From: Ancrocorticia sp.
Lineage (GTDB): Bacteria; Actinomycetota; Actinomycetes; Actinomycetales; Actinomycetaceae
Assembly (NCBI GenBank): GCA_047602305.1
Contig: JASGHO010000001.1
Coordinates: 3,151,898-3,215,897, forward strand
Length of the DNA stretch: 64,000 nucleotides
Direction: 5' to 3'
Shown: one piece after another, positions 21,346 to 39,718 of the stretch
Position numbering within the stretch: the first letter of the stretch is position 1
Layout of the letters: every line of letters begins with the position of its first letter
Position numbers and translations under genes: made by a program
The notes under the pieces: generated by a model
The model's input: the letters and a program-made list of their open reading frames with translations, nothing else
The model's database searches: none
What the model was told of the DNA's origin: nothing

Positions 21346-21361
21346 CTCCGATGCGGTGATG

Positions 21362-21409: not shown

Positions 21410-21423
21410 CTTCCGTCACGAAC

Positions 21424-21500
21424 GAGTGATAGCCCGGTTAAGGAGTGATAGCGATGACAGCGTCCGCGCTATCAACTCTTTGCCGCGCTATCACTCCTTT
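21424..21500. repeat. Palindromic GGAGTGATAG element, copy 1
   Basis: AAGGAGTGATAGCG...CGCTATCACTCCTT; inverted near-identical copy at 47596-47670. Confidence 0.8.
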
Positions 21501-21791
21501 GGATACAGCCTCCCTGCGGGGTGACGCCGTCGTTCACAACCCGATCCTTTCGACCGCGTTCCTAACTGGGCGCCACAACGATATCCGTGCCGTCTACGGC
21601 ATACGTATCGCTCTCATGCCCAGTTAGATTCTGATCTTCCCCGCATAACAATCCGGGCATACTCACGTAACGTTTTGGTTGAGTCGGCCGCCTGAAAGCG
21701 TCCCGGCATGTAGCGTTGACGCGGATTGAGAGGTCGGCTGGAGATGCCTGCCTCCTTACCCTGCCACGTGTGCCGCGACGAAGGAGCCACC

Positions 21792-23129
21792 ATGCCACGC
21801 CGATTGAGCAGAAGTACGCGTTCGTCAACGTTTTCTATCGTTGCTGCGTGCTTCGCCCTGGCTCTCGCGGGCTGCGATGGCTCCGCGGATGGATCGCAAG
21901 CTACTACCCCGGCACCTTCTGCAACCGAAACGGCAACCACCGGGCCCGAAGGGCATACGGAACGGGAAGGAAACACGAAACCCAAAGAAAATGCGGAAGC
22001 CTCCGTGCCGTCGTCGAACCCTAATATCCAACTTTCCCCCGACTGGATTCACGGCGCGCGTGAGGCGTGGACGATTGAGGCCTTCAATGTGGTGGATGTG
22101 AGCGCCGCGTACCTGCTGGTTAACTATGGGCACAGAACTGTCGGGGCCTACGACATCTCCAGTGAGCAACCGGAGGAGCTGTGGGTCCGAGGGACTGAGG
22201 ACTGGACGGGCGGAGTGATCTGGGGAGACAAGGCGGTCAGTAGAACCGGAACCATGGTGGACATCCGGACCGGCGACCTTCTGGAGCCACTGTGGGATGC
22301 ATCGGAGCAAAAGGAAGTACCTGTGCTCGTCGTTGTTGGAGACACTCTTGTTACTTCGGATCGATCCACCATGACGGGTTATGGTCCCGATGGAACGATC
22401 AAGTGGAGTGTTCCGGACCTGCGATGGTCCCGTATTGCCGTCAATGGTGAGGGATACGTGATGGGCTTTACCTACCAGCCTGATACGAAGGAGATGGCAA
22501 TCGGGCTAGTTTCTCCCGATGGTGACATAACATTCCCGACGCCGCACAGAGCCGACGGTGCTACCCCGAAGGACGTTCCCGGATGGGCTGGGGTTATAGG
22601 GCAGAACAGCGGTTTCCAACCGCTCTCTGATGGATGGCTGGTCACGAGCCACACCATGACCGCCGGGCCTGATAATCCCAACGAGTACTACTATTTCCTC
22701 TTCAGATCGGATGGCACGCCCGTGGCTGTCAATACCCTCGATTCCGCCCGGTTCATGGCCAATTCCACTGCGGCCATCAGTTCGGAAGGGACTGTGCTGC
22801 CGAGCGTGAAGGACTGGCAGAATCATCTCCAGAACCCTGATCCCTGGCTCGCGTGCGACGGCGCTACCTGCACAATCAACGGGAATCCCTTGGCTGACTT
22901 CAGTTACGTGGTCTCCGCGACGGCACTGGGCGAGGGTGGCAGCCTACTGCTGCGCAATGCCAGCTCTCTCAATGACATGAATTGGAATCGGATCGGCGTG
23001 GTCACCGCCGAGGGCGAGACGCTATGGACAGTGGACACGTCGGAGAAATCGTTCAACGCTTCCCGTCGCGACCTCATCCTCCTGGAAGGAGTGGGTGGAG
23101 ATTCGACAGTCTCCGGTCTGATCCCGTGA
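21792..23129 (+). CDS. Putative lipoprotein (paralog 2)
   Basis: Lipobox LAGC, RBS AAGGAG; shares 'G.REAW.I.A..VVDV' and 'LPSVKDW.N..QNPDPWL.CDGATCTIN.NP' with paralog 1. Confidence 0.7.
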   Translation: MPRRLSRSTRSSTFSIVAACFALALAGCDGSADGSQATTPAPSATETATTGPEGHTEREGNTKPKENAEASVPSSNPNIQLSPDWIHGAREAWTIEAFNVVDVSAAYLLVNYGHRTVGAYDISSEQPEELWVRGTEDWTGGVIWGDKAVSRTGTMVDIRTGDLLEPLWDASEQKEVPVLVVVGDTLVTSDRSTMTGYGPDGTIKWSVPDLRWSRIAVNGEGYVMGFTYQPDTKEMAIGLVSPDGDITFPTPHRADGATPKDVPGWAGVIGQNSGFQPLSDGWLVTSHTMTAGPDNPNEYYYFLFRSDGTPVAVNTLDSARFMANSTAAISSEGTVLPSVKDWQNHLQNPDPWLACDGATCTINGNPLADFSYVVSATALGEGGSLLLRNASSLNDMNWNRIGVVTAEGETLWTVDTSEKSFNASRRDLILLEGVGGDSTVSGLIP

Positions 23130-23154
23130 GCCATGATCCCGCGGTGATTGATAG

Positions 23155-23242
23155 CGACGACGACGTCGCGCGGCTGGTTCGTGGGTGACCCGGCTGGTTC
23201 GTGGGTGACTTGGCTGGTTCGTGGGCGGGCGCCGTCGTCGTT
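23155..23242. repeat. REP-like element, subfamily S (three 20-bp internal units)
   Basis: CGACGACGACG arm, (C/T)GGCTGGTTCGTGGG unit x3, GCGCCGTCGTCG arm. Confidence 0.8.
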
Positions 23243-23308
23243 CACGACGATCATCGGGAGCCGAACTAGCATCATCTCTCCCTCTACTTTCAATCTATAA
23301 CACGAGGG

Positions 23309-23327
23309 GGCTCTTGCCGCAAGACCC
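23309..23327 (+). promoter_or_regulatory. Rifamycin-associated element (RAE)-like 19-bp palindrome
   Basis: GGCTCTTGC-C-GCAAGACCC about 55 bp upstream of helR ATG and just downstream of TATAAC; matches the CTTGC-N-GCAAG RAE core as I recall it. Confidence 0.8.
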
Positions 23328-23380
23328 CCTCCATACGGCAGAATGTGGCCCTCTCACACTTGTTCGCGATCGGAGACGCC

Positions 23381-25726
23381 ATGCCCACGCCACTCGAATC
23401 CTCCATGTTTGTCCTTCCACAGCGGCTTGCGGGGAAGGCCGATCCGCGGTTTACAGCCAGGGACGAGCAGCAGTTCGGCGCCATCGCGGCCGCTATTGAC
23501 CATCAGAAGGAGGAGGTCGCGGGCCTCCTGGATGCTCGGCGAAAAGCCGGGGCCCATTTCGGAGGGGAAGTGGTTGAGAGGGACCAGGAGATTCGCCGTC
23601 TCAGCTCTCAGCTGGCATTTCTCCAGCGTTTCGGGGTGGATCTTTGCTTGGGACGGATGGTGACGGAAGCCCAGACGGACCCCGTTTATATTGGCCGCGC
23701 CGGACTCCGTTCGAGCGACGGCGAGCAGCTTCTCATCGACTGGCGAGCTCCGGCGGCCCGGCCGTTCTTTTCCGCGACCCGGGCGGATTCGATGGGGCTC
23801 GCGAGCCGTCGTCGTTATCGCTGGAACAACGGGAAGGTCGCCGACTACTGGGACGAAGTATTCGCCGCGGGCAATTTCGGCGACGCAACCACGTACGACG
23901 ACGAATCGGCCTTCATCGCCAGCCTGGGCGCCGATCGCTCGCCACGCATGCGCGATGTTCTCTCCACGATACAGGCGGATCAGGACGCGATTATCCGGGC
24001 GTCGTCGTGGGGAACGCTGGTGGTTGACGGCGGTCCCGGGACCGGAAAAACGGTGGTGGCACTGCATCGCGCCGCCTACCTGATGTACGCCGAGCCGCGC
24101 ATCTCCGACGCTGGCGGAATCCTGTTCATCGGACCGAATTCTTCGTATCTGAGGTATGTCGACGACGTCCTGCCCGGACTGGGCGAGAACAACGTCCAGT
24201 TGGCGACGCTGCGCGATCTCGTTCCTGAAGGGGCGGGTGCGCTGGCGGCGGAGGTCACCGAGGACGTTGTGGAACTGGAGATTGCCGCGCTCAAGGGAAC
24301 GGCGCAGATGGTTGCCGCGATTGATGCCGCGGTGCGTTTCTATGAGGAGCCGCCTCGCGAGGCGATCAGTGTTGAGACGGCGCGCGGAGAGTTTGTGGTG
24401 GAGTCCGCCGACTGGTCCGAAGCCTTTGGCGCAGTCGGCCGCGACACTCCCCACAACGAGGGCAAACGCGAGGTACTCGAATCCTTGGTGGAGATCCTCG
24501 TGGACCGGCTGGATATCGACGATGAGGACGACGACGAACTGGCTCGCGCTCGCGATGAACTCGCCCGGAGCTTTGAGCTGAGGAGCGCGGTGCGGAAGGC
24601 GTGGCCGATTCTCGACCCGGCCGAGGTGGTGGGTGACCTGTGGAGTGTGCCCGCTTACCTGGCGATGTGCGCGCCGGGTTTGAGCGGGGACGAGGTGAAG
24701 CGACTGCAGCGTTCCGATGCGCAGGCATGGACTACCGCTGACCTTCCGCTGTTGGATGCCGCGCGCTTCCGGATTGGCGATCCGGATCAGGCTCGGCGCG
24801 AGGAGCGGCAGACACGAGAGCGGGCCCGGGTGCGGGCGGATATGGACGATGTCGTCGCCGACCTAATAGCCAACGATGACACCGAGCTGAAGGTGATGTG
24901 GATGTTGAGCGAACAGGATATGCGCGAGGCGTTGGAGTTTGATGAGGTCCGGGAGGTCAGCCGGAGCGAGCGGTTGGCGGGGCCGTTTGGGCACGTCGTC
25001 GTTGATGAGGCGCAGGAGCTCACGGCGGCGCAGTGGGAGATGATAACGCGCCGCTGCCCGTCGCGAAGTGTGACCGTGGTGGGGGATCGGGCTCAGGCGC
25101 GGACAGGTTTTGCGGAGTCGTGGGAGGAGCGGCTCGGGCGGGTTGGGCTGGCTGGGCTCGCTGGGTCGGTTGGGTTTGGTGGGTTTGGCGGGTCTGCTGG
25201 GTCGGTTGGGTCTGGCGGGTCTGGTGGGCAGGGAGGGGTGCGCGTGGCGACGCTGCGCATCAACTACCGCACGCCGGAGGAGATCATGGCCGAGGCAGAA
25301 CCGGTCATTCGAACCGTGTATCCGCAGGCCAACGTGCCGGTTTCTGTACGTTCTGGAGGTTGTCCGGTCGAGTATGTGGAGGCGGGCGAATGGCGAGAGA
25401 TCCTTACGCGGTGGTTGGTGGAGCGGACGGGTGGCACCGCGTGTGTTGTGGCGCTGCCGAAGCGGATCGACGGTGTGCGTGCGGATTTTCGTGGTGTTGT
25501 GGGTGCCAAGGTGGTGCCGGGTGGCGAGGGGTTGCCAGCTGGGGCCGAGGCAGTGCGGGCTGGCGATGCTGTTGTTTTCTTGGAACCCGTGGACGTCAAA
25601 GGACTGGAGTTTGACCTTGTTATTCTCATCGATCCAGAAGCCTGGGGAACGGGCGTCACCGCAACCGTGGATCGCTACGTCGCGATGACCCGGGCGACTA
25701 AGCGCCTGGTGATCGCGGGTTCGTAG
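23381..25726 (+). CDS. helR: RNA polymerase recycling motor ATPase HelR (rifamycin-protective HelD paralog)
   Basis: 'F.LP..L..KADP...A.DEQ.F.AIA', 'DLCLGRMV', 'DWRAPAARPFF.AT....MGL..RRRY', 'GGPGTGKT', 'VVDEAQE', 'YVAMTRAT'. Confidence 0.9.
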   Translation: MPTPLESSMFVLPQRLAGKADPRFTARDEQQFGAIAAAIDHQKEEVAGLLDARRKAGAHFGGEVVERDQEIRRLSSQLAFLQRFGVDLCLGRMVTEAQTDPVYIGRAGLRSSDGEQLLIDWRAPAARPFFSATRADSMGLASRRRYRWNNGKVADYWDEVFAAGNFGDATTYDDESAFIASLGADRSPRMRDVLSTIQADQDAIIRASSWGTLVVDGGPGTGKTVVALHRAAYLMYAEPRISDAGGILFIGPNSSYLRYVDDVLPGLGENNVQLATLRDLVPEGAGALAAEVTEDVVELEIAALKGTAQMVAAIDAAVRFYEEPPREAISVETARGEFVVESADWSEAFGAVGRDTPHNEGKREVLESLVEILVDRLDIDDEDDDELARARDELARSFELRSAVRKAWPILDPAEVVGDLWSVPAYLAMCAPGLSGDEVKRLQRSDAQAWTTADLPLLDAARFRIGDPDQARREERQTRERARVRADMDDVVADLIANDDTELKVMWMLSEQDMREALEFDEVREVSRSERLAGPFGHVVVDEAQELTAAQWEMITRRCPSRSVTVVGDRAQARTGFAESWEERLGRVGLAGLAGSVGFGGFGGSAGSVGSGGSGGQGGVRVATLRINYRTPEEIMAEAEPVIRTVYPQANVPVSVRSGGCPVEYVEAGEWREILTRWLVERTGGTACVVALPKRIDGVRADFRGVVGAKVVPGGEGLPAGAEAVRAGDAVVFLEPVDVKGLEFDLVILIDPEAWGTGVTATVDRYVAMTRATKRLVIAGS

Positions 25727-27440: not shown

Positions 27441-28511
27441 ATGAACATGACTACTAGTTCTCTTATTCATCGCCCAGACCGGGCCTCCGCAGTTGTGTAG
27501 GCACAGACTTTTCCTCGAATCCGTTACATGGGTTCAAAGTACAGACTGCTTCCGCAGCTTGCTGAAGTATTCGAATCAGTGGGTGGACACACTGCCCTTG
27601 ATGCCTTCTCTGGTTCGGGAGTCGTCTCCTATCTACTTAAGACTCTCGGATACTCGGTGACGTCAAATGATTTCTTGACGTTCCCTTCCGTGATCACCAG
27701 AGCGACTGTAGCCAACTGGTCTGAGACTCTGGATGAGGCAGAGGTGGACGCGATCTGCGGTCCCGCAGTGGACGATCGAGACTTCATTCAGTCGACCTTC
27801 GAAGGGCTCTATTTCACGCCGGAGGATCTGCGCTTCTTCGACTCTGCGTGGTCGCATATTGACAGCATGGTTGGGCACAAGCGAGATATCGCGATTGCCG
27901 CATTGGTTCTCTCGGCAGCCCGCAAGCAACCGCGTGGAGTCTTCACGTTCACCGATCCCACGAAGTATTTTGATGGGCGGAGGGATCTACGACTGACGAT
28001 GCGGGAGCACTTCCGTGAGGCGGTACGCGATTACAACGCTGTGGTGTTTGATAATGGCGTGGTGTCTGAGTCTCTGTGCGGTGACGTGTTTGATGTGCCG
28101 TTGATCGATCCAGATATTGTTTACTTGGATCCTCCTTACGCTCCCAAGAAGGATGACGCCGACTATACGAAGAGGTACCACTTCTTGGAGGGGCTGAGTG
28201 TGTATTGGCAGGGGATGCCGATCATGGAGAACACCAAGACGAAGAAGATTGAGAAGCGCCATACTCCCTTTGCGAGTAAGCGAACTGTCGACGACGCCTT
28301 GGTGCGAGTTTTCGAGCAGTTCAGTGACGCGGGTGCCATCGTGATGTCCTACTCGTCGAATGCGTTGCCCGAGTCTTCGCGGATTGTTGAGCTACTCAAG
28401 ACCGTCAAGAAGGACGTGCAGGTGACAGCAGTGGACTACCGTTACAGCTTTGGCACTCATAGCGCCGCTTTGAAGACCACAGCACAAGAACTTATTTTTG
28501 TGGCGCGGTGA
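27441..28511 (+). pseudogene. D12-class N6-adenine DNA methyltransferase with in-frame TAG at codon 20
   Basis: 'FPRIRYMGSK', 'DAFSGSGVVS', 'YLDPPY'; in-frame TAG at 27498-27500 lies between ATG 27441/27447 and the conserved motif; an ATG at 27528 could still give a shortened product. Confidence 0.65.
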
Positions 28512-28546
28512 GAATATGAGTGCGCGAGTTATTCCGGAGCGAACAA

Positions 28547-28756
28547 GCTATAACTCTAAAATTGTTAGAGTACTTTAGAGTAGCCGCCGGGTGGGACTCA
28601 ATGTGGAGCCTTAAGTTCGGTACTCAATCGACGTTCCTGCTGGTAGTGGCGCCATTCCCTATCTTCATGTAAGCTCTAACACCTACTCTAACGACTCTAA
28701 CATTTTGGCGTTAGAGTCTTTATAGTAGGTGCTCTGACGCCTCGCCAGCCGGCGTC
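28547..28756. repeat. Duplicated promoter block A (ACTCTAA/TTAGAGT motifs)
   Basis: Homologous to 34308-34519; several direct and inverted copies of ACTCTAA. Confidence 0.85.
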
Positions 28757-28793
28757 TTGTTCACAACTCCCGCAAACTCGAGGCGTCGTCGTC
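28751..28793 (+). repeat. Repeat R1 (half site, lacks left arm)
   Basis: GGCGTCTTGTTCACAACTCCCG...GGCGTCGTCGTC. Confidence 0.85.
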
Positions 28794-28839
28794 ACTCCCG
28801 CCGTTGCGGAATAGACCATGCAGGTTCTAGAATCTTCTT

Positions 28840-29190
28840 ATGTGGGTGGTTGATGTCGAGTTGATTGAGGAGTGGCTGGACTCGCTAGACGCAGTCTCAT
28901 GGAGGCAAGTGATGGCCGCTATTGAGATACTGCAAGAGGTGGGGCCGAGATTGGGACGCCCGCTTGTTGACACATTGACAGCGTCTCGTCACAGGAACAT
29001 GAAGGAGCTCAGACCAGGTTCTTCTGGTCGATCCGAGTTGCGAGTCCTGTTCGCATTCGATCCTGAGAGGTCGGCCATCATGCTGATCGCGGGGGATAAG
29101 GCTGGAAATTGGAGTCGCTGGTACAAGAAGAACATTCCTTTGGCTGACGATCTGTTTGATCGTCATCTGCGGGGATTGAGGGGAGAATGA
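28840..29190 (+). CDS. RelE/HigB-type toxin (Gp49/DUF891-like)
   Basis: 'GPRLGRPLVDT...RH.NMKELR......ELRVLFAFDP.R.AI.LIAGDK...W..WYKKNIP.AD'. Confidence 0.92.
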   Translation: MWVVDVELIEEWLDSLDAVSWRQVMAAIEILQEVGPRLGRPLVDTLTASRHRNMKELRPGSSGRSELRVLFAFDPERSAIMLIAGDKAGNWSRWYKKNIPLADDLFDRHLRGLRGE

Positions 29191-29510
29191 TCAAGATGGC
29201 ACTCAGTTACGAAGAATACTTGGCGAAGCATCCCGTGACTTCTGCAGAGCGCGCGGAGATTGACGCCCACAAGAAGCGGATGGCCTCTGAAGTTCGTGCG
29301 TATCGGTTGCGTGAGTTGCGTGAACAAGCTGGGCTGACTCAAGCCCAACTTGCAGATCGAATCGGCGTTGGGCAAAGGCAAGTCTCTAAGATCGAGACGG
29401 GCAATCTCGACAACGCGAAGATTGGCACGATTCGCAGCTATCTTGAAGCGGTCGGCGGCAGTCTCGCTGTGGAGTACGTCGTCGGCGACGAGCGGGTGCA
29501 GGTAGCCTGA
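29187..29510 (+). CDS. XRE-family HTH antitoxin
   Basis: 'LRELREQAGLTQ.QLA...GV.Q..VSKIE.G'; ATGA overlap with the toxin. Confidence 0.92.
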   Translation: MIKMALSYEEYLAKHPVTSAERAEIDAHKKRMASEVRAYRLRELREQAGLTQAQLADRIGVGQRQVSKIETGNLDNAKIGTIRSYLEAVGGSLAVEYVVGDERVQVA

Positions 29511-29591
29511 AAATCGTCGAGAATGTCGGTGATCGAGTTCCAGTAGCCGGTCGAGTCTCCCTCACCTTGCTCTAGGCGCCCTGATCCGACC

Positions 29592-29668
29592 GACGACGGC
29601 GTCACCTCGGAACCTTGTTCACAACTCCCGCGAGCCCGCGGCGCCGTCGTCGTTAATCTGCGAGAGCC
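29592..29668 (+). repeat. Repeat R2 (full palindromic site)
   Basis: GACGACGGCG...CTTGTTCACAACTCCCGCGAGCCCG...CGCCGTCGTCGTTAATCTGCGAGAGCC. Confidence 0.9.
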
Positions 29669-30135
29669 GTAGATGCAAGAGATGTGTGACCGATCTGCGC
29701 ATGCTGACCTGAGGGCTTCGGCAACGCGGAATCGGGGCTATCTGCCGCGAGTTCTTCCGGATTCTGAGCGCTGGCATGTCTGGGGTGTCCATTGCTCTGA
29801 TTCGGACGCGCTGATTGCCCCACGCGGTTGCTTTGATCCCAGTCGAGTTTAGATTTGACGTCAAGCTTTCGTGACGCGTTGAGTTATATGCTGGTCGTGT
29901 GATTAGGTCGTTCGGGAGTGTGGATGCCGAATGCATCTGGCAGGCGCACTCTGTCAATGGCGTCGATCAGCGAGTTCAGTGGGAGCGCTGCTGATGCGGC
30001 TGTCCGGCTGACGTGTTACTTCGGTACCTAAGAAGGGGTTGGGATGAACTTTCAGTCGAACGACGAACTACGAGTGCAGCGCCGGGTGTTGTGGGACAAG
30101 TTTGCCGAGATCGCACCGTTGAAGGTCGCTTAGCG

Positions 30136-30543
30136 GTGCCGATCGAGTTCAAAGTCTCGGCGGCGGTCGACGACCGGGAGTTGTCTGCTCTGCATCATCG
30201 TGCGTTCGGCAAGGGAGCCGAGCAGGTTGTTCCTTGGGGTCAACGGCTGAACCGATGCAGTATTTTCTGGGTGACCGCGGAAGACGATTCGGGTCTTGTT
30301 GGATTCGTGAACGTCGTTGGGGATGGCGGAGTTCATGCGTTCATTCTCGACACAGTCGTCTCCCCGGAGAGACAAGGTGAAGGGATCGGAAGGACTCTGA
30401 TTCAGGTAGCTGCTTCTGAGGCTCGCGATCGTGGCTGCGATTGGTTACACGTCGACTTCGAACCGGAACTCGCGAAGTTCTACTTCGAGCACTGCGGTTT
30501 TCGTTCCACGCAGGCCGGGCTGCTCCGACTCTCAAACCCCTAA
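30136..30543 (+). CDS. GNAT family N-acetyltransferase
   Basis: 'LVGFVNVVGDGGVHAFILDT.V.PE.QGEGIGR.L', 'WLHVDFE..L..FY...CGF'. Confidence 0.92.
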   Translation: MPIEFKVSAAVDDRELSALHHRAFGKGAEQVVPWGQRLNRCSIFWVTAEDDSGLVGFVNVVGDGGVHAFILDTVVSPERQGEGIGRTLIQVAASEARDRGCDWLHVDFEPELAKFYFEHCGFRSTQAGLLRLSNP

Positions 30544-30607
30544 CCGTGACGTCATGCGGTTGAATTGTCCTGAGTTCGCTCCTCGCTCCGGGTACCCCGA
30601 CCCGACC

Positions 30608-30657
30608 GACGACGGCGTCGCCTCGGCACAACTCCCGTGAGCCCGCGGCGCCGTCGT
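30608..30657 (+). repeat. Repeat R3
   Basis: GACGACGGCG...CACAACTCCCGTGAGCCCGCGGCGCCGTCGT. Confidence 0.88.
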
Positions 30658-30671
30658 ACAAGTTGCTCGCT

Positions 30672-30770
30672 GAATCCGCAAAGTCTCTGGACGCAATGTG
30701 TTTCTGCTTGGTAATAGCATCAATCCGATGCCCCAATAAATAAAGTGAATAGAATAAATACGGTTTCCAG
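30672..30770 (+). repeat. AT-rich block A (homolog of 34568-34667)
   Basis: GCAAAGTCTCTGG...CATCAATCC...AATAAATAAAGTGAATAGAATAAATACGGTTT. Confidence 0.8.
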
Positions 30771-30840
30771 AGTGCGGATGGCACCACAGATCCTCCGGCA
30801 GACTTGACTCTGACACCGTGGAAGATTGGAGAGTAGGTAC

Positions 30841-31644
30841 ATGCTTTCCATTGGAGCTTTCGCGCAGATCGGCCAGGTGACCCACCGCCAACTCAGACAC
30901 TGGGACTCGGCCGGGTTGCTCGTACCCGCGCACGTGGATGAGTTCACCGGCTACCGTTCGTATGATCCGTCGCAGCTCAAGCAGCTGCACCGGATCGTCG
31001 CTCTGAGGCGACTTGGTTTCGGAATCGACGATATTGCGGCCATGCTCGACGAGGGAGTCGACACCGACTTCCTCACCAAGCAACTGCGTATCCGCCAGGC
31101 CGAAGTTGAGCGTGAGCACCGGATTGCGGCAGCCAGACTCATCGACGTCGAGCGACGGCTCCACCTGATCGAAACGGAGAATCACATGTCCCAGATAGAG
31201 CTTGTCGAGAAGTCACTACCCGCACTTCGCCTTGCTGCTCGCACTGCCGTTGTTGCCGAGCAACCGGAGATTGCGGGCGTCGTCGGCCCAATGTTTGATG
31301 ACATCGCAGCCATCATCGGTGATGTGCCCGGTACCCTTGATACGCCGGTTGCGCTGTACGAGTCGGTTGAGGAAGGCATGCGGGTCACGGCTGGTTACGT
31401 GTACAAGGGCGAGGCTCGCGAGGGCTTCGACATCGTGGAGATTCCTGCGGCCGGCGCCGCGATTTGTGGAGTCCACCTAGGTTCAATGGATCGCATCGGC
31501 AACAGTTGGCAGGCGCTGCACACCGATCTGCTCGCGCGTGGTTACGTGCCCTCCGCGCCGTGCCGCGAGCTCTACGTTCGTTCATACCCCGAGGATCAGA
31601 CGGACTGGGTGACCGAGCTCCAGCAGCCGGTCGAGCTGCCCTGA
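30841..31644 (+). CDS. MerR family regulator with GyrI-like effector domain
   Basis: 'LSIGAFA....VT.RQLRHWD..GLL.PA.VD..TGYR.Y'; C-terminal 'PCRELY...WVTELQQP'; TTGACT -35 at 30804. Confidence 0.92.
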   Translation: MLSIGAFAQIGQVTHRQLRHWDSAGLLVPAHVDEFTGYRSYDPSQLKQLHRIVALRRLGFGIDDIAAMLDEGVDTDFLTKQLRIRQAEVEREHRIAAARLIDVERRLHLIETENHMSQIELVEKSLPALRLAARTAVVAEQPEIAGVVGPMFDDIAAIIGDVPGTLDTPVALYESVEEGMRVTAGYVYKGEAREGFDIVEIPAAGAAICGVHLGSMDRIGNSWQALHTDLLARGYVPSAPCRELYVRSYPEDQTDWVTELQQPVELP

Positions 31645-31666
31645 GTCTGTTCACCGGCATCCCGTA

Positions 31667-31740
31667 TCGGCCGATGATGTCAGTTTGGCGCCTTGTTTAG
31701 GACTCCTGCGAGCCGGTGCCGCCGTCTATTTGCGAGAGCC
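31667..31740 (+). repeat. Repeat R4 (degenerate)
   Basis: CCTTGTTTAGGACTCCTGCGAGCC...GCCGCCGTC.ATTTGCGAGAGCC; same flanks as R7. Confidence 0.6.
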
Positions 31741-32072
31741 TGACGACGGGCTTGCCAGTAGAGCGGGCGTACTCGATTTCGTGGGTGGTTGGCTTGCCGA
31801 TGTAGCCGCCTGGGTCGACGACGAAGACAGCGTCGGCGAGGTCAATCTTCCTCAGATGAAGCTCGTCGAGGAGCTGCTTCTGTTCGTCGGGATTGTGTCG
31901 CCACTGTGCTGGAACAGCGCCGGGGCCACAACAATGATTCCCGCGAGTGTGAGGTGTTGATTGGCGGCCGCCATCTCATCGCGGAAGCGGGTGGAGCCAC
32001 AAATGCAGACGATCTGCGGCTGGTCTGCGCGCGCCAGCCCGAAGATCGCGGTCATGTCCGGTTACGCGATGC
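31735..32072 (-). pseudogene. Nucleoside 2-deoxyribosyltransferase-like gene, frameshifted copy
   Basis: Homolog of 36980-37402 with a 1-nt deletion near 31890 (TTCGTCGG-GAT vs TTCGTCGGTGAT). Confidence 0.8.
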
Positions 32073-32102
32073 GTGCGCCTCTTTCGGTAGAGAAGAGTGG
32101 GC

Positions 32103-32227
32103 GGATCTCCGTCACTTCCCGTCCAGTGTGAGATCCTCGGACCCGGCCCGGCTCGAACGGGCTGCCACCCTCACCGATGACGGGTAGGGCGCATCCTTAC
32201 CGGGTAGATGCGCCTTGGGCGGGCTCG
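32103..32227 (-). ncRNA. Candidate structured RNA with tRNA-like T-arm, copy 1
   Basis: Minus strand: GAGCCCG/CGGGTCC closing stem, two hairpins, GCCCG-TTCGAGC-CGGGC T-arm, then GGATCTC/GAGATCC hairpin; 123/125 identical to copy 2. Confidence 0.55.
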
Positions 32228-32233
32228 TTGTCG

Positions 32234-32242
32234 ATCGTAGCA
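32234..32242 (-). promoter_or_regulatory. Extended -10 promoter TGCTACGAT
   Basis: TGn-TACGAT 7 nt upstream of the predicted RNA 5' stem; kept as TGATACGAT in copy 2 (37521-37529). Confidence 0.55.
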
Positions 32243-32298
32243 GTGAGAGGTAAGCTCCGGAGATTCAATTCTAGGTCGTGCCGAGTTTCTGGCTTCCT

Positions 32299-32356
32299 AT
32301 GGCGGTGAGAGCGTTCTATCCGGTTATATATCCAGATAGAACGCTCTCACCGCCAT
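32299..32356. repeat. Long hairpin element (22-bp arms), copy 1
   Basis: ATGGCGGTGAGAGCGTTCTATC-CGGTTATATATCCA-GATAGAACGCTCTCACCGCCAT; second copy 50734-50789. Confidence 0.85.
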
Positions 32357-32406
32357 CCGTGTAAAGTTTGTTGTCAGAATTTGACAGGGTAGCGGCCTGT
32401 ACCGAG

Positions 32407-32814
32407 CTAAGCTTCAACCCCACGCAGTGGCACGAGGCCACGGTTCTTGCGGATGTCGCGGTAGTTCCACTGGATTTCACGCACTTCGGCGAGCCAGAGG
32501 CTGAGCGCCTCGACGTCCACCTGGTCCGGTGCGGTGTAACGCAGTTCAGCTGCTTTGAAACTGCCTACGGCTTTCAGCCCGGGTTCGTGGAACGACTGAC
32601 CACTCCAGAACATGATGCGCACCGACGCCTTGAGTGGGCTGTATCCAACAACAGGATTCCCGTCGAAGAACCAGACGGGGTGTGCGTGCCAGATCTTTCG
32701 CGAAGCATCGGGAAGTTCACGTTCGATGACCGAGAGGAGGAGATCGCAGATTGGTCGGGCTTCGGGGTCAAGTTTCGCGTGGAAGTCCCGGATATCTTCG
32801 GGTACTGCTGCTAT
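32407..32814 (-). pseudogene. DUF1801 gene copy with start codon ATG mutated to ATA
   Basis: 408-bp homolog of 37601-38008, open frame, first codon ATA. Confidence 0.7.
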
Positions 32815-32906
32815 GGTGGCCTCCGGTTCTCGTATTGTTTCCTGCCGGGCTAGTCTCGACTGGACTGTCCCCGCTCAGTCCGTTTCGGGACTCCGCCGGT
32901 CCCTGC

Positions 32907-34307
32907 CTAGCTCACCCTCCACGTTGCGCGGGGATCCTTCGGAGAATCACCTTCCCAGATAACGAGGCCCGCATCGCGGAGAGCGTCGAGGTGGCGTAAC
33001 ACGGTTGGCCGAGCAAGATCAACAAGTTCGGTAATCTGGCCGGTTCCCAATGGACGTTGTGCCAGGCGCAAGGCATCCAAAACTCTGATTGCTCCGGCAC
33101 CGAGCGATGTCATAATGGCTTCTGGAACTGCGTTGCTTGCGAGCAAGGTTAGTCGGACTGTCTCGGTCGTCTGAACGTACATGGGATCAGCCAGACCTAC
33201 GCGCCGCATCTCGCTGAATATACGGCGGATGCCTTCACCGAGTTCCTGTGTGATTCCGAGGTCAGCGCAGACGCGTGCAATACGAGGATTCCTCGCATAC
33301 CGGTTGATTGACTCCGGATGCGCAGGATTGGCCATTCCGGGGAATCGGCCAGGGCTAGTAATCTCGATACGGTTCGGAAAAATCTCGACCCTAATATGAT
33401 CGCCGCCGATGCTGTAGGAGCGATGCACGACGGCGTTGACCAGCCCCTCCAGCCACGCATCGGTAGGAATCATGGGGATGCCCTCGAACCGTCCAGAATC
33501 TCCCAGCGCTTGGCGCCGGGGGAGAAGTTCTTGGATCACATGCATTGCCTGAGTGATCTGTTGCGGAATGGAACCCTCACAGCGCGTGTCTGTGCCTTCT
33601 TCGAGAGTGTGAGTACGGCCGGATCCGCGTTCGATGTCGGCATACTTAAGAACTCGAACGTGGGCGCTCGGATAGATGATTTGCGGGCGGTCGGCAAACA
33701 GAAGGTAGGCGGCAACCGTTATTTCGTTATCTCTTGTCAGAAGATCACGGGCTCGGAGGGTGAGTTCGGGAGACGCTGATCCCAGAGCCTGCTGGTATGC
33801 CGCGAGTTGAGCAGCACTGAGATCGGTAATGTCTGTCGACGGAACCGCAGTGCCGTCGAAACGGGTAACTCCTCTATCCCATTCAAGTTCTTGCCGTTGA
33901 GCGAAAGTGAGTCGCCTCGACTCATCGCCAACTCGTTGGAAGCACTCGCCTTTCTTGGACTCGTGTACATGATCGTCCGGTCCCACACGAAAGGCGAGGA
34001 TGCGGCCCTGACTCGTCAACAGTTCCTCTACGCGAACCCGAACAGTGGGCACAGTGAAATCGATGGCTGCTTGCCGTAGATCGTTGTCAGCCTTATCTGA
34101 GACGGGGACTATCTTGCCGTCAGAAAGTCCTGCGACGACGACGCCACCTTCCGAGTTAGCCATGGCGATAAGGGGTACTGCGAGATCTACTGGTTTGATG
34201 ATGCCTGACTTGCGCTCAAACCACTGGCTTTCGGGTAACTCCAACAGGTGTTTGACGGCCTCATCAGGTGGAAGGCCGAGCGCTTGATCTACAGCTGCAG
34301 GAAACAT
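32907..34307 (-). CDS. Schlafen/AlbA_2 domain + HATPase_c_4 + C-terminal wHTH protein
   Basis: 'ESQWFERKS...IAMANSEGG..VAG..D', 'EGLVNAVVHRSY...IRVEIFPNRIEITSPG...RNPRIA...ELGEGIRRI', 'RPTVLRHL..L...GLV'. Confidence 0.85.
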   Translation of the reverse strand: MFPAAVDQALGLPPDEAVKHLLELPESQWFERKSGIIKPVDLAVPLIAMANSEGGVVVAGLSDGKIVPVSDKADNDLRQAAIDFTVPTVRVRVEELLTSQGRILAFRVGPDDHVHESKKGECFQRVGDESRRLTFAQRQELEWDRGVTRFDGTAVPSTDITDLSAAQLAAYQQALGSASPELTLRARDLLTRDNEITVAAYLLFADRPQIIYPSAHVRVLKYADIERGSGRTHTLEEGTDTRCEGSIPQQITQAMHVIQELLPRRQALGDSGRFEGIPMIPTDAWLEGLVNAVVHRSYSIGGDHIRVEIFPNRIEITSPGRFPGMANPAHPESINRYARNPRIARVCADLGITQELGEGIRRIFSEMRRVGLADPMYVQTTETVRLTLLASNAVPEAIMTSLGAGAIRVLDALRLAQRPLGTGQITELVDLARPTVLRHLDALRDAGLVIWEGDSPKDPRATWRVS

Positions 34308-34519
34308 GCTATAACTCTAACATTTTTATAGTAGTTTAGAGTAGCTGCTCGGTGGGGTTGTGATTGGTGTGTAAGGCCCTGTTCTTTTCGTAGCGTTTTT
34401 GCTGGTAAAGGCGTCGTTGCCAGGGTTTGGGTATTGCTCTAATACCTACTCTAAAGACTCTAACATTTTGGCGTTAGAGTCTTTATAGTAAGTGCTCTGA
34501 CGCCTCGCCCGCCGGCGTC
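34308..34519. promoter_or_regulatory. Duplicated promoter block B; leaderless promoter for the AlbA_2 gene
   Basis: Minus strand TAGAGT-TATAGC-ATG (-10 hexamer 6 nt before ATG); homolog of 28547-28756. Confidence 0.7.
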
Positions 34520-34563
34520 TTGTTCACAACTCCCGTGAGCCCGAGGCGCCGTCGTCGTTAATC
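34514..34563 (+). repeat. Repeat R5 (half site, apparent 'empty' site)
   Basis: Left flank matches R1's left flank; right flank matches R3's right flank. Confidence 0.88.
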
Positions 34564-34567
34564 TTGC

Positions 34568-34667
34568 TGAGCCTGCAAAATCTCTGGGCGCAACGCGTTT
34601 GCCTGGTACAACATCAATCCAATATTCAAAAATAAATAAAGTAAATAAAATAAATACGGTTTTCTAG
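34568..34667 (+). repeat. AT-rich block B upstream of the AAA ATPase
   Basis: AATAAATAAAGTAAATAAAATAAATACGGTTTT followed by TATAAT at 34669-34674. Confidence 0.75.
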
Positions 34668-34681
34668 GTATAATTGACATT

Positions 34682-35881
34682 ATGACTCGACGTGAGAACC
34701 TTGGACCCAGCCCGTTTAGCCCGGGGTATGGGAGGCGTCCACTTGTGTTCGGAGGTCACAGCGAAGAGTTTGCGGAGATCTCCGAGGTATTCGAGACGTT
34801 GGATTTCGGTGAGAATCAGTCGATCCTGATTTCAGGTCTCCGCGGTGCTGGAAAGACGTCGATGCTTGCGAAACTGCAGGATGCTGCCAGGGAGAATCAA
34901 TGGCTTGTCATCAGCGACGATGCAAGTTCTGGCCTGATGGATCGTGTCATGGAGACGACCATTCCGGCGCTTCTGGGCACGCTGTCACCTGATACCCGGT
35001 CGCGACTGACGGGGTTGGGGATCTGGCAACTGGATGCTCAATGGGAATATGTAGATAGGCGTAGAGAAGTCAAGCCACTGCTCCGCCGTGATCTTGTCGC
35101 GCTTTCAAATATTCTTCAAGAATCAACGCCGCATGGTGGAATTCTGATCACTATAGACGAGGTGTCGTCGGGCAAAGTTCGGTTGCGGGAGCTTTCGAGG
35201 TTTGCGTTGGAGGTCTCTCACGCGATCAGTGAGGGTGCGAACATCATGATTGTATTCGCAGGGATCAAAGTAGATCTAGATGCGCTCGTTGAGCAGGACC
35301 ACACGACATTTCTGCGGCGTTCGCGTGAGCTTGATTTCCGTAGGCTTACACCGTCGCAGACGCGTTATGTCTTGGCTGAGACCATCCGAATCGGTGGGCG
35401 GATTATTGAAGATGACGCGCTCGAGCTCCTGCTCTCCTTCTCCCAGGGATACCCCTATTTGGTTCAGCTGGCTGGAGACTATGCTTGGCGCCATAATGCC
35501 TCGGCTGAGGAAATCAGCCTTGATGATGCCAGTGCCGCTCACAGGCGTGCGATTACAGCGGTTGAACGGCGTGTTATCAGTCGCGTATATCAGGATCTAT
35601 CCGATAAGGATCAGCAGTTCATAGCCGCTATGGCAGTGGATAATGGGCGGAGCAAGATCTCCGACATCGTCGAAAGGATGGGCGTTTCCGCCCAGTATGT
35701 TCAGGTCTATAAGAAACGGCTCATTGAAACTGGTTATGTCCAAGCGGACGGGCGCGGTCACGTAGTGTTCTCGCTTCCCTACTTGGGAGACTATGTCCGC
35801 GCCATGCTGGAAGAAGATGAGGCACCCCGCAAGGACGGGTGGGAAGACGTCCCACCTCCTCGGGCTTCCGTAGATGGATGA
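34682..35881 (+). CDS. AAA+ ATPase (AAA_16/archaeal-ATPase type) with C-terminal wHTH
   Basis: 'SPFSPGYG..P', Walker A 'SGLRGAGKT', Walker B 'LITIDE', 'SQGYPYLVQL.G', 'Y.KRLIETG'. Confidence 0.85.
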   Translation: MTRRENLGPSPFSPGYGRRPLVFGGHSEEFAEISEVFETLDFGENQSILISGLRGAGKTSMLAKLQDAARENQWLVISDDASSGLMDRVMETTIPALLGTLSPDTRSRLTGLGIWQLDAQWEYVDRRREVKPLLRRDLVALSNILQESTPHGGILITIDEVSSGKVRLRELSRFALEVSHAISEGANIMIVFAGIKVDLDALVEQDHTTFLRRSRELDFRRLTPSQTRYVLAETIRIGGRIIEDDALELLLSFSQGYPYLVQLAGDYAWRHNASAEEISLDDASAAHRRAITAVERRVISRVYQDLSDKDQQFIAAMAVDNGRSKISDIVERMGVSAQYVQVYKKRLIETGYVQADGRGHVVFSLPYLGDYVRAMLEEDEAPRKDGWEDVPPPRASVDG

Positions 35882-36005
35882 GGGCGGAGGCAGCAAACTC
35901 ACTGAAAAGCGAGATTAGGCATCGTCGCTCCTTGATTCGTTGAACCCCGGCCCCTAATATTCCTCCGGCGGACTCAACTCTGGCACCGTGGAGATTCCGG
36001 CAGTC

Positions 36006-36080
36006 GACGACGGCGTCACCCGGTACCTTGGCCACAACTCCCGTGAGCCCGAGGCGCCGTCGTCGTTAATCTGCGAGAGC
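36006..36080 (+). repeat. Repeat R6 (full site)
   Basis: GACGACGGCG...CACAACTCCCGTGAGCCCGAGGCGCCGTCGTCGTTAATCTGCGAGAGC. Confidence 0.9.
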
Positions 36081-36260
36081 TGTGGGACAGGCGTGCCGGT
36101 GGATCGGGCGTACGCGATGCCGAACTTCTGACATTTGGCCAACCGGTGCCTAGAGTCGGTGGCGCAGGTGATTTGCTGTCACATCGCCTATGTCGGGATA
36201 GCGTTTCTTTGGTTGGGACCTATTGGTGGTACACCTCAGACACTGGTGGTACACTCGGGT

Positions 36261-36518
36261 ATGACTACTTCTCTGCCACGTATTCAGGTCACGGTGACGG
36301 AGCCTGTTGCCAAAGCACTGGAGGTCGCTGATGAAACCTGGCCAGGGTTGCAGCGATCCCAGCAGGTTGCCAGGCTCTTGAGTGAAGGCGCGCGTTCTTT
36401 GGCCTCGGCTCAGAAGTTGAGCAAGGAAAAGCGGCGGGAAATTCTTGAGGCCACGCGAGGAATGGTTGCGTATCAGGACGGCTACCTTGATCAGCTCCGA
36501 GGTGAGTGGCCGGAATGA
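36261..36518 (+). CDS. VapB-like antitoxin
   Basis: Small protein 'MTTSLPRIQVT...YQDGYLDQLRGEWPE' with ATGA overlap to a PIN gene. Confidence 0.8.
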   Translation: MTTSLPRIQVTVTEPVAKALEVADETWPGLQRSQQVARLLSEGARSLASAQKLSKEKRREILEATRGMVAYQDGYLDQLRGEWPE

Positions 36519-36895
36519 TCGTTCTGGATGCCTGCGTCTTGATCTCGCACTTCGGTTCAGGCGACACTCACTCCGATCAGGCGCTCGAGATTCTTGTTCA
36601 TGAAGAAGAACTGTTGGTGCATCCGTTAACGCTTGCTGAGGTGTTGGTGGGTGCAGTGAAGCAAGGTGTTTCGGGGCAGCTCATCGAGGCACTTGGGACT
36701 ATTGGGATCGAGCAAGCTGATGTGAATGATGTCAGTCCACTGGAGCTGGCGGCGTATCGAGTCGAAGACGGACTCAAAATGCCGGACTGCTGCGTGCTTG
36801 GCCTTGCGGTGAAACATGGCGCGACGCTGGCAACATTCGACGCCAAATTGGCCAAAGCTGGCCGAAACCACGGACTGGAAGTCATGGGAGCATAG
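36515..36895 (+). CDS. vapC: VapC-type PIN domain toxin
   Basis: 'IVLDACVLI', 'TLAEVLVG', 'MPDCCVL..A......LATFD..L..A'. Confidence 0.9.
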   Translation: MIVLDACVLISHFGSGDTHSDQALEILVHEEELLVHPLTLAEVLVGAVKQGVSGQLIEALGTIGIEQADVNDVSPLELAAYRVEDGLKMPDCCVLGLAVKHGATLATFDAKLAKAGRNHGLEVMGA

Positions 36896-36933
36896 GTGGC
36901 ACTGAGTCTGTTCACTGGCACTTAGCATCGGTC

Positions 36934-37026
36934 GACGACGACGGCGTCGCCTCGGAACCTTGTTCAGAACTCCCGCGGGTCACAACTCCCGTGAGCCCGC
37001 GCCGCCGTCGTTAATCTGCGAAAGCC
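36934..37026 (+). repeat. Repeat R7 (full site, internal duplication)
   Basis: GACGACGACGGCG...CTTGTTCAGAACTCCCG..CACAACTCCCGTGAGCCCG...GCCGTCGTTAATCTGCG. Confidence 0.88.
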
Positions 37027-37402
37027 TGACGACGGGCTTGCTGGTGGAGCGGGCGTAAGCAATCTCGCGGGTGGTTGATTCCCCGATGTAGCCGCCGGGG
37101 TCGACGACGAAGACCGCGTCGGCGAGGTCGATCTTGCGCAGGTGAAGCTCGTCGAGGAGCTGCTTCTGTTCGTCGGTGATGACGTCGCCGCTGTGTTGAA
37201 ACACGGCCGGGGCAACGACGATCTTGCCCGCGAGAGTCAGTTGTTGATTGGCGGCCGCCATCTCGTCACGGAAACGAGTCGAACCGCAAATGCAGACGAT
37301 CTGCGGCCGATCCTCGTACACTGGCCCGAAGATCTCGGTCATGTCCGGGTACGTCATGCGCGGGCCTCTTTCGGTAGAGAAGAGCGGGCGGATCTCCGTC
37401 AC
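36980..37402 (-). CDS. Nucleoside 2-deoxyribosyltransferase-like protein
   Basis: 'IVCICGSTRF...LHLRKIDLADAVFVV...GYIGEST.REIAYA'; start may be internal (MTYPD); stop lies inside R7. Confidence 0.7.
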   Translation of the reverse strand: MTEIRPLFSTERGPRMTYPDMTEIFGPVYEDRPQIVCICGSTRFRDEMAAANQQLTLAGKIVVAPAVFQHSGDVITDEQKQLLDELHLRKIDLADAVFVVDPGGYIGESTTREIAYARSTSKPVVRLSQINDGGAGSREL

Positions 37403-37514
37403 TTCCCGTCCAGTGTGAGATCCTCGGACCCGGCCCGGCTCGAACGGGCTGCCACCCTCACCTATGACGGGTAGGGCGCATCCTTACCGGGTAGATACGC
37501 CTTGGGCGGGCTCG
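37390..37514 (-). ncRNA. Candidate structured RNA with tRNA-like T-arm, copy 2
   Basis: Same fold as 32103-32227; the two substitutions fall in a loop and convert a C-G pair to U-G. Confidence 0.55.
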
Positions 37515-37600
37515 TTATTGATCGTATCAGTGAGAGGTAAGCTCCGGAGATAATTCTAGGTCTTGCCGAGTTTCTGGTTTTCTATGGCGGTGAGACCGGG

Positions 37601-38008
37601 CTAAGCTTCAACCCCACGCAGTGGTAGGAGGCCACGGTTCTTGCGGATGTCGCGGTAGTTCCACTGGATTTCGCGCGCTTGCGCGAGCCAGCGGCTGAGC
37701 GCCTCGACGTCCACCTGGTCCGGTGCGGTGTAACGCAGTTCGGCGGCCTTGAAACTGCCCTCAGCTTTCAGTCCGGGTTCGTGGAACGACTGACCACTCC
37801 AGAACATGATGCGCACCGACGCCTTGAGTCGGCTGTACCCAACAACAGGATTCCCGTCGAAGAACCAGACGGGGTGTGCGTGCCAGATCTTTCGTGAAGC
37901 ATCGGGAAGTCCACGTTCGATGACCGAGAGGAGGAGATCGCAGATTGGTCGGGCTTCGGGGTCAAGTTTCGCGTGGAAGTCCTGGATATCTTCGGGCACT
38001 GCTGCCAT
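37601..38008 (-). CDS. DUF1801 (YdhG-like) protein
   Basis: 'KIWHAHPVWF.DGNPVVGYS.LK..VR.MFWSGQSF.EPGL...GSFKAAE.RY'. Confidence 0.85.
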   Translation of the reverse strand: MAAVPEDIQDFHAKLDPEARPICDLLLSVIERGLPDASRKIWHAHPVWFFDGNPVVGYSRLKASVRIMFWSGQSFHEPGLKAEGSFKAAELRYTAPDQVDVEALSRWLAQAREIQWNYRDIRKNRGLLPLRGVEA

Positions 38009-38043
38009 GGTGGCCTCCGGTTCTCGTATCGTTTCCTGCGTGG

Positions 38044-38463
38044 TTAGTCAGATGACCCCTCGCGTGCCCGGTTCGTGAAAGTTCCAGCGGTTAAGGCCGC
38101 GAACGAAGCTGTGACGATCTGTTCGAGTACACCGAGATTAATCTTCTCCAAGTCGGTGAGGTAGAGACAGCCGACGCCTCCTCGGTAGGGCCCAAGCTGA
38201 GCCAGCAACTCTTCGTGCGACCCCAGGCCATCGTTGAGATAGACCGACATTGCAGCTTTGCGCGGCGCGAACGCGGCGGCGGGTGCCGTACCCTTGCGGC
38301 CGCTGTCATAGTGATAGTGGTACTCGCCGTACCCGACGATTGTGCCCCGCAGTTCAGGCTTCAGACCGGTCACCTTCGTGAAGAGTGCAAGCAGTGTTTC
38401 GGCGTCGCGACGCCGTTTGGCCGGGGTAACCTTCGCGATGAAGTCATCAATTTCGCTCGACAT
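38044..38463 (-). CDS. DUF1801 protein
   Basis: 'RRRDAE.L......TG..P.L.GTIVGYG.YHY.Y.SGR.G......FAPRK..MS.YL...GVGCLYL..L'. Confidence 0.88.
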   Translation of the reverse strand: MSSEIDDFIAKVTPAKRRRDAETLLALFTKVTGLKPELRGTIVGYGEYHYHYDSGRKGTAPAAAFAPRKAAMSVYLNDGLGSHEELLAQLGPYRGGVGCLYLTDLEKINLGVLEQIVTASFAALTAGTFTNRAREGSSD

Positions 38464-38604: not shown

Positions 38605-38676
38605 AAATCTATCTCCGAAATCCCGTACCTTGCGTACCCATGACACACGGGTAGCGGGATTCTGGAGATACATTTT
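38605..38676. repeat. ATCTCCG hairpin element, copy 1
   Basis: ATCTCCGAAATCCCG...TACCCATGACACACG...CGGGATTCTGGAGAT; second copy 51842-51913. Confidence 0.75.
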
Positions 38677-39584: not shown

Positions 39585-39614
39585 CATCTACCGTGAAGGC
39601 GACTAATGTACGTC

Positions 39615-39718
39615 GATAACCGCGTCCATCTGCACGGATAATCGTTCTGATCCGCGTTGATAACCGCGTCCATCTGCACGGATAATCGTTCTGATCCGCG
39701 TTGATAACCGCGTCCATC
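39615..39718. repeat. 44-bp tandem repeat, 2.4 copies
   Basis: GATAACCGCGTCCATCTGCACGGATAATCGTTCTGATCCGCGTT at 39615 and 39659, partial at 39703. Confidence 0.9.

Follow-up and report, generated by a model that had tools for sequence, protein, structure and literature searches.

A repeat formed by the 3' end of an NDT-like gene separates variable accessory modules between ychF and agcS in Ancrocorticia sp.

In a 64,000-nucleotide stretch of the Ancrocorticia sp. genome (assembly GCA_047602305.1, contig JASGHO010000001.1, positions 3,151,898 to 3,215,897 of the forward strand; the whole stretch is called the window below), small accessory gene modules between ychF and agcS are separated by seven copies of a repeat, here called R. 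R is the 3' end of an NDT-like gene together with the hairpin downstream of it, and not an independent element. The original prediction, made from the letters of the window, had read this region as an undescribed cassette system driven by an enzyme of its own, with homologous recombination at R as a fallback. No evidence for such a system was obtained, as R is the end of a gene, its junctions are ragged and breakpoints also fall outside it; the fallback is the explanation favoured here. We regard it as about an even call that the modules were stacked at the NDT 3' end and that R then acted as portable homology for general recombination.

Origin and distribution of repeat R

All seven co-oriented copies of R that had been predicted were found, every one on the + strand and all within 8.3 kb (Table 1). 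R is an imperfect palindrome of about 75 to 95 nt (approximately 85 nt). Its 19-nt core, CACAACTCCCGYGAGCCCG, was matched six times in the window when up to three mismatches were allowed (0.08 matches expected from shuffled sequences), all six of them in the interval from 28.7 to 37.0 kb.

The last 12 residues of the NDT-like protein, QINDGGAGSREL, are encoded on the reverse strand by the tail, right arm and core of R7. The conserved NDT domain stops at ...KPVVRLS, before this tail. Close NDT homologues (78 to 88%) end in R-like tails, QIDDGGTDSRES and HIEDSGTDPRKF, and more distant homologues have unrelated ones. The GTTAATC motif at the end of the repeat is simply NDT coding sequence and specifies ...QIN.

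In the relatives recovered, the commonest layout has one R between convergent MerR and NDT genes and a second R, with an NDT scrap of about 100 nt, after a GNAT gene. The simpler order, seen in many samples, is a variable left side followed by GNAT, R with the scrap of about 100 nt, GNAT2, DinB(-), MerR, R, NDT(-), DUF1801(-), RF-1(-) and AgcS. Since relatives share this simpler layout, R belongs natively at the point where MerR and NDT converge; it overlaps the stop codon of NDT and would form a terminator-like structure there. Scraps of both neighbours accompany other copies. MerR 3' scraps lie to the left of R2 (35 nt) and R7 (shorter), and NDT 3' scraps lie to the right of R2 (about 17 nt), R6 (about 55 nt), the copy L107d of contig L107 (about 95 nt) and the first R of the relatives (about 100 nt). 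These scraps differ from one another in sequence, which suggests that the target segment was duplicated several times independently.

Two sequence types of R can be distinguished: type II, the native one beside NDT, and type I, the type of the array. Closing stems of 9 to 13 bp are present in R2, R3, R6 and R7 (minimum free energy as DNA -17 to -22 kcal/mol, z -2.1 to -3.3). These four had been called full hairpins of the attC or REP (repetitive extragenic palindrome) kind; the fold stands, but attC boxes are absent and R is not dispersed as REPs are. R1 and R5 had been described as lacking the left arm. The standard arm is indeed missing from both; a variant left arm fused to the upstream block takes its place, and R1 folds by means of it (GACGCCTCG / CGAGGCGTC, 9 bp). 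Folds of R4 and R5 were no better than those of shuffled sequence. The attI-like role proposed for R1 and R5 was not borne out, as each is a hybrid or variant R with a promoter-like site of the block upstream of it. These sites overlap the inverted repeat of the block and read towards R1 and R5, so that both copies would lie in 5' leaders.

R may have a structural role. As duplex DNA, R is by inspection an 11-bp inverted repeat with a 40- to 45-bp spacer. A U-tract terminator was considered and set aside, as the stem is present but is followed by GTTAATCTG, and the terminator scan called no copy of R; R could nevertheless act as a terminator that lacks a U-tract. Rfam gave no match at the gathering threshold over the whole window, nor at E ≤ 1 over 28.4 to 37.2 kb, and the window scan showed no tRNA or tmRNA that could be the target.

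Several copies are mosaics (among them R5, R7 and copy L106a of contig L106). R7 carries a duplication of the 19-nt core and several type switches, and the NDT C-terminus is altered by this mosaic. All five good copies in the window have GAGCCCG, against GAGTCCG in most relatives; such uniformity is consistent with gene conversion.

In the DNA scanned, R is confined to this locus. Its profile found no copy in the remaining 55 kb or so of the window, in the non-array part of related contigs (about 50 kb; by our own tally about 107 kb together with the window) or in 80 ychF loci of other actinobacteria. The nearest species representative with R is an Actinomycetaceae metagenome-assembled genome (MAG), in which the type I core, as the variant GAGTCCG, is found at the GNAT/GNAT2 junction alone, a point at which the assembly breaks. 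Scans with the exact core of GTDB (one genome per species) and of JGI metagenomes returned single chance matches only, without the arms of R, and the 8.6-kb array had no megablast match among plasmids.

Two other palindromic repeats were seen in the window. A near-perfect 57-nt palindrome, ATGGCGGTGAGAGCGTTCTATCCGGTTAT / ATATCCAGATAGAACGCTCTCACCGCCAT, lies at 32299-32356 and 50733-50789 (91% identity), with a half-site at 37584-37603; it interrupts the older NDT-DUF1801 copy, where, to judge from the intact copy, it seems to have been inserted. An intergenic hairpin repeat of about 65 nt (ATCTCCGAAATCCCG...CGGGATT.CGGAGAT) is found at 38605-38669 and 51843-51907, and in relatives at 1947-2025 of L126 and 3637-3714 of L151. 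It is conserved in relatives and, unlike R, is a dispersed family like REPs or miniature inverted-repeat transposable elements (MITEs).

Module order and junctions in related contigs

About 40 related contigs were compared, those used for the strain comparison being approximately 94 to 96% identical; most are short and end at R or at the operator/promoter block. Modules are absent, reordered or recombined among them, so the polymorphism that had been anticipated is present. The NDT-DUF1801-RF-1-AgcS side is kept across contigs and the left side and internal modules vary. Ten combinations of left and right flanks were counted at R. Together with the module order in L128 and the hybrid R of L106, these support the earlier claim that modules are gained, lost and reordered at R.

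The arrays L089, L106 and L107 share the order block-R-AT-AAA-R-(GNAT scraps)-(block scrap)-vapBC-R-NDT scrap-GNAT2. Their left neighbours are AlbA with YobI and an insertion sequence (IS), DUF2971, or GNAT with an 88-aa open reading frame (ORF). L128 and L129 instead show IS-YobI-AlbA-block-X88-block-vapBC-R-GNAT-R-AT-scrap-R-NDT scrap-GNAT2, the AAA and MerR genes both being missing from this interval. In L106 the block is joined directly to GNAT, without higBA, through a hybrid R (L106a) made of the left half of R1 and the right half of R2; it reads as R1 up to CTCCCGCAA and as R2 from GCCCGCGG on.

An alignment across related strains had been proposed to see whether breakpoints fall inside R, and its outcome was divided. 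At the equivalent of R2, flanks diverge from 29592 to 29672, about 80 nt that span the repeat. Several breakpoints lie outside R, at about 29880, 30566 and 36133 and in the losses of the AAA ORF and of MerR, the block duplications and a 5.2-kb duplication of R-NDT-DUF1801. Junctions are ragged. On the right they occur at 0, +17, +24, +55 to +70 and +95 to +100 nt beyond the arm, and on the left inside the arm or at -2, -26 or -35.

The 88-aa ORF has no family match and is flanked on both sides by the operator block (9120-9386 in L089, 1445-1711 in L107 and 7195-7458 in L128); it is conserved among these contigs and absent from the window. A mobilizable element abuts the GNAT module in L132 (3514-9366; JBDIAV010000049.1, from a related MAG) and also in L133 and L134. 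It encodes ArdA, a relaxase, MobC, a D5-type primase-helicase and an HTH_17 excisionase-like protein, with no integrase gene in view, and in L132 an IS3-family IS stands at its far end. Coverage of the L132 contig, taken from contig names, is 16x against 35x for the adjoining contig; the element may thus be carried by only part of the population.

Stacking, portable homology and other explanations

The array could have arisen as follows. Foreign or duplicated DNA would have been stacked repeatedly at the MerR/NDT junction, an insertion hot spot, and each event would have left a further co-oriented R, often with an NDT 3' scrap on its right or a MerR 3' scrap on its left. The outcome would be the higBA, GNAT, MerR, AlbA, AAA ATPase and vapBC modules separated by copies of R. 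Exchange between two copies would delete or duplicate the DNA between them, a circle made of a module plus R, or incoming DNA flanked by R, could re-enter at any R, and gene conversion would both homogenize the copies and make mosaics of them. The general recombination of the host, presumably the RecA pathway, would suffice, a dedicated integrase being neither required nor visible. Ragged junctions, mosaic copies, homogenization within the genome and the lack of a shared recombinase all fit general recombination. The locus also has the conserved flanks, strain-variable content and mosaic junctions of a homologous-recombination hot spot.

Recombination hot spots between conserved flanking genes are familiar as the minimal mobile elements of Neisseria. 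The present locus is similar in its conserved sides (ychF on the left and NDT, DUF1801, RF-1 and agcS on the right), in its variable content and in that homologous recombination is enough to explain it. It differs in the internal repeat, as R adds homology that allows many units to stack and to be reordered within one locus.

Four things weigh against stacking followed by general recombination. Recurrent independent insertions at one target of about 100 nt look like site preference, the cases being MerR|R|NDT, vapBC|R|NDT, higBA|R-like|NDT (L153) and GNAT|R|NDT scrap. Homology alone leaves the first capture of each foreign module unexplained. R1 and R2 share just 18 nt or so of perfect identity, which is short for RecA-dependent exchange. 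In addition, a consensus fold over all types of R gave 8 weak pairs with one compensatory change, so that covariation is almost nil.

Recurrent target choice and short perfect identity keep a site-specific enzyme acting in trans among the rivals, possible but on balance doubtful. R, or the NDT 3' end, would then be the attachment site of a recombinase encoded elsewhere, with integrase-less modules stacked by tandem accretion and mobilized in trans, or the substrate of a new hairpin-specific cassette recombinase. The concept of tandem accretion, in which integrative elements and integrase-less cis-mobilizable elements (CIMEs) accumulate at a target-gene 3' end, comes from ICESt1 and ICESt3 of Streptococcus. 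Here too, the units are bounded by co-oriented direct repeats that copy one gene's 3' end, integrase-less units are stacked, and scraps of the target end (17 to 100 nt of NDT) remain at older junctions. Integrative elements that rebuild the gene they enter classically leave such repeats. The segment has been duplicated independently at least three times, with foreign cargo on each occasion, and all copies of R have one orientation; both observations point the same way. So does the higBA module, which belongs to a single-member cluster yet arrived with R halves of its own and with a MerR scrap, suggesting that modules move from one R array to another. However, the units are tiny compared with CIMEs (0.8 to 1.5 kb, with one or two genes), no cognate integrase or parent integrative and conjugative element was seen, and the repeat contains a long hairpin. 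Junctions are ragged, with no fixed core, although this could reflect later deletions, and R7 has its 19-nt duplication and multiple type switches. An inverted repeat and spacer of the dimensions given above are, by inspection, unlike known core sites.

The search for an enzyme was negative. As had been noted originally for integrases, none of the 50 ORFs across the window encodes an integrase, a transposase, a Y1/HUH or PF00589 domain or any other recombinase, and no recombinase is common to the arrays of relatives. A resolvase (L138, L141), IS integrases (L089, L128) and the integrase-less integrative and mobilizable element of L132 were not taken as the enzyme, as each occurs in some layouts only. 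It is rather doubtful that R is the recognition site of an unrecognized recombinase, encoded outside the window, that captures and shuffles single-gene modules at the NDT 3' end. If this were true, Actinomycetaceae would possess a non-integron cassette platform that evolved independently of IntI/attC, and if the exchanges proved to be recA-independent, this locus would be a place to look for a new recombinase.

Another history, in which the region arose mostly by segmental or tandem duplication followed by differential deletion and R was a passive passenger, a terminator copied with its gene that plays no particular part as a recombination joint, is unlikely. The window reads as two diverged copies of a unit AlbA-block-R-AT-AAA-MerR-R-NDT-DUF1801 with unlike losses and insertions, R4 with its NDT and DUF1801 copies duplicates R7-NDT-DUF1801 at 87 to 94%, and the breakpoints outside R also fit such a history. 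It does not account for the ten flank combinations that meet at R, nor for hybrid copies that switch inside the repeat, and higBA and vapBC are foreign insertions, not duplicates.

It is very unlikely that R is a small mobile repeat inserted between genes, whether a REP or bacterial interspersed mosaic element (BIME) moved by a REP-associated tyrosine transposase (RAYT) or a MITE. In its size (approximately 75 to 90 nt), its imperfect symmetry and its intergenic place 3' of genes, where it is probably transcribed, R does resemble REP/BIME and enterobacterial repetitive intergenic consensus (ERIC) palindromes, and other small palindromic repeats are dispersed in this genome. Unlike those families, R is undispersed, being restricted to one locus and one orientation, with no copy in the non-array DNA and with its core in the related MAG only here. 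R is also continuous with the coding end of NDT and overlaps its stop codon, aligned flanks show no target-site duplication, and no Y1 RAYT gene was found in the window or in related loci.

The most improbable explanation is an integron-type cassette array without integrase (CALIN), with R as attC. What suggests it is the set of small, mostly co-oriented accessory genes (toxin-antitoxin pairs and acetyltransferases such as GNAT, both typical cassette cargo), each followed by a folded repeat, with no integrase nearby, an order shuffled between strains and a GTTAATC that resembles GTTRRRY. Yet GTTAATC is merely NDT codons, and it has no GATTAAC partner to the left of the stem; the sequences left of the left arm (..GATCCGACC, ..GGCAGT and ..ATCGGT) are not complementary to it. 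Neither an R''/R' nor an L''/L' box pair is present. By inspection the type I stem is an uninterrupted 10 to 13 bp, with no conserved extrahelical or bulged G or T. Crossovers are not at G|TT; they fall at various points between the left arm and +20 nt beyond the right one, with some as far out as +100 nt. Some modules lie on the opposite strand or have promoters of their own, and no IntI is encoded among the window ORFs. Complete integrons were not found in Actinobacteria, the phylum of this host (Cury et al. 2016, PMC4889954).

We class the locus with the accretion and recombination hot spots known from gene 3' ends, as a variant of these, and not with integron-like systems. With stacking and general recombination as its cause, it would show that a cassette-like array can arise without integron machinery, when each insertion copies a hairpin-bearing gene end that later acts as a joint common to the modules. 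For annotation, co-oriented folded repeats between toxin-antitoxin and GNAT genes are by themselves no evidence of an integron. The locus also offers a compact natural system for studying how repeated homology of about 50 to 90 nt drives gain, loss and exchange of accessory genes, with about ten junction types available in metagenomes.

Modules of the array and its surroundings

Cargo assignments made from the sequence were upheld by Pfam, which gave HigB/Gp49 with a helix-turn-helix (HTH) antitoxin, GNAT, MerR with a GyrI-like domain, AlbA_2/HATPase_c_4/winged HTH (wHTH), AAA_16 with wHTH, PIN and DUF1801 (Table 1). Housekeeping genes lie on both sides of the array, encoding GreA, MsrA, UppS, XseA, IspH, RmuC and YchF on one side and AgcS and transporters on the other. 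YchF reaches no more than 82% identity with any species representative, its best matches being in Actinomycetaceae.

Table 1. Repeat copies, modules and blocks of the array (positions in the window).
Feature	Position	Strand	Remarks
Operator/promoter block A	28542-28750	+	21- to 22-nt inverted repeat; 78% to block B
Promoter-like site, block A	28697-28726		Reads towards R1; CTAACA-18-TATAGT
R1	28751-28793	+	Variant copy; left arm from block A; right arm variant CGAGGCGTCGTCGTC
higBA module	28840-29510	+	HigB/Gp49 28840-29190; HTH antitoxin 29187-29510; Pfam
MerR/GyrI-like 3' scrap, left of R2	29528-29562	+	83% to 31608-31642
R2	29591-29677	+	Full type I hairpin; 11-bp stem; z -3.3; then 17-nt NDT 3' scrap GTTAATCTGCGAGAGCC
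GNAT acetyltransferase, 135-aa form	30136-30543	+	Pfam; ORF reaches 30013; 90 to 96% protein identity in relatives
R3	30607-30657	+	Type I copy; 9-nt internal deletion
AT motif A, orphan AAA upstream motif	30735-30766	+	94% to 34631-34662; AAA ORF missing
MerR promoter-region scraps	30791-30822; 35961-35992 (left of R6)	+	88% to each other
MerR-family regulator with GyrI-like domain, 267 aa	30841-31644	+	Pfam; 95 to 96% in relatives
R4	31667-31730	+	Degenerate native-type (type II) copy; 65% to reference copy; between MerR and NDT pseudogene; no stable fold
NDT duplicate (frameshifted pseudogene) and DUF1801a	31703-32855	-	Split tblastn matches
AlbA_2/HATPase_c_4/wHTH protein	32907-34307	-	Pfam; 96.5% DNA identity in L089 and L128
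Operator/promoter block B	34303-34512	+	Promoter-like site 34460-34489
R5	34513-34564	+	Hybrid: left part block-type, right part type I; poor fold, z -0.18
AT motif B and AAA_16-wHTH ATPase gene	34631-35881	+	Gene from 34682 or 34745 to 35881; Pfam
R6	36005-36118	+	Type I; 11-bp stem; includes NDT 3' coding scrap of about 55 nt, 80% to 36999-37063
vapBC	36135-36895	+	Antitoxin ORF 36135/36260-36518; PIN toxin 36506-36895; Pfam, NCBIfam
R7 and alpha spacer with MerR 3' scrap	36899-37026	+	R7 from 36934; type II/type I mosaic; overlaps NDT stop codon
NDT-like gene, 125 aa	36980-37357	-	Tail encoded by R7
Two DUF1801 genes, conserved right flank of island	37601-38463	-	Pfam; kept in relatives

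The matching 'empty' and 'filled' sites proposed originally are present: block-R5-AT corresponds to block-R1-higBA-R2-GNAT-R3-AT, with 78% identity both between 28542-28793 and 34303-34556 and between 30627-30766 and 34525-34662. As identity is only 78%, these flanks are old or foreign paralogues, and no recent event is indicated.

The AT-rich part of these flanks is the conserved upstream motif of the AAA family itself, separate from R. The motif AAATAAA(N4-6)AAATAAATA precedes AAA_16-wHTH homologues at 9 loci in other actinobacterial genera (7 named), and these same loci are without R, without the block and without an AlbA neighbour; one has a higBA neighbour. It is probably the promoter or operator of the family. 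Since the motif belongs upstream of AAA, the AT block A in front of MerR is an AAA module whose ORF has been lost. The AAA gene itself may have a leaderless start, with TATAAT 8 nt before the ATG at 34682.

The 90% cluster of higBA in the protein database searched has the copy from this genome as its sole member. Its nearest homologue (90%), on a contig of 923 bp, directly adjoins an NDT 3' end that resembles R, and the next ones (82 to 85%) are in other genera. In Mycetocola tolaasinivorans (L119, 2447-4957) a higBA pair (68 and 66%) lies about 0.7 kb downstream of an AAA_16-wHTH homologue (71%); small modules thus travel together outside the R array too.

The AlbA_2 gene has different left neighbours in L089 and L128, and the left boundary of vapBC is also at 36133 in relatives. 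The NDT duplicate and DUF1801a are 87 and 94% identical to 36985-37598 and 37595-38049, respectively.

Just upstream of ychF, 19954-25726 encodes two paralogous ORFs (463 and 467 aa, no Pfam match) followed by a UvrD/GajB-like helicase (793 aa). Downstream of ychF is the gene for a D12 adenine methyltransferase of type II (27528-28511), beside which no nuclease partner is apparent. Taken together, all these genes look like a defence-island neighbourhood. On the other side, the intergenic region upstream of agcS contains 2.5 copies of a 44-nt unit at 98% identity (39611-39718). Towards the end of the window an 825-aa ORF with a DUF3040 match (61472-63949, - strand) contains tandem repeats of about 117 nt (39 aa) over 61660-63025 and shows strong GC and AT skew.

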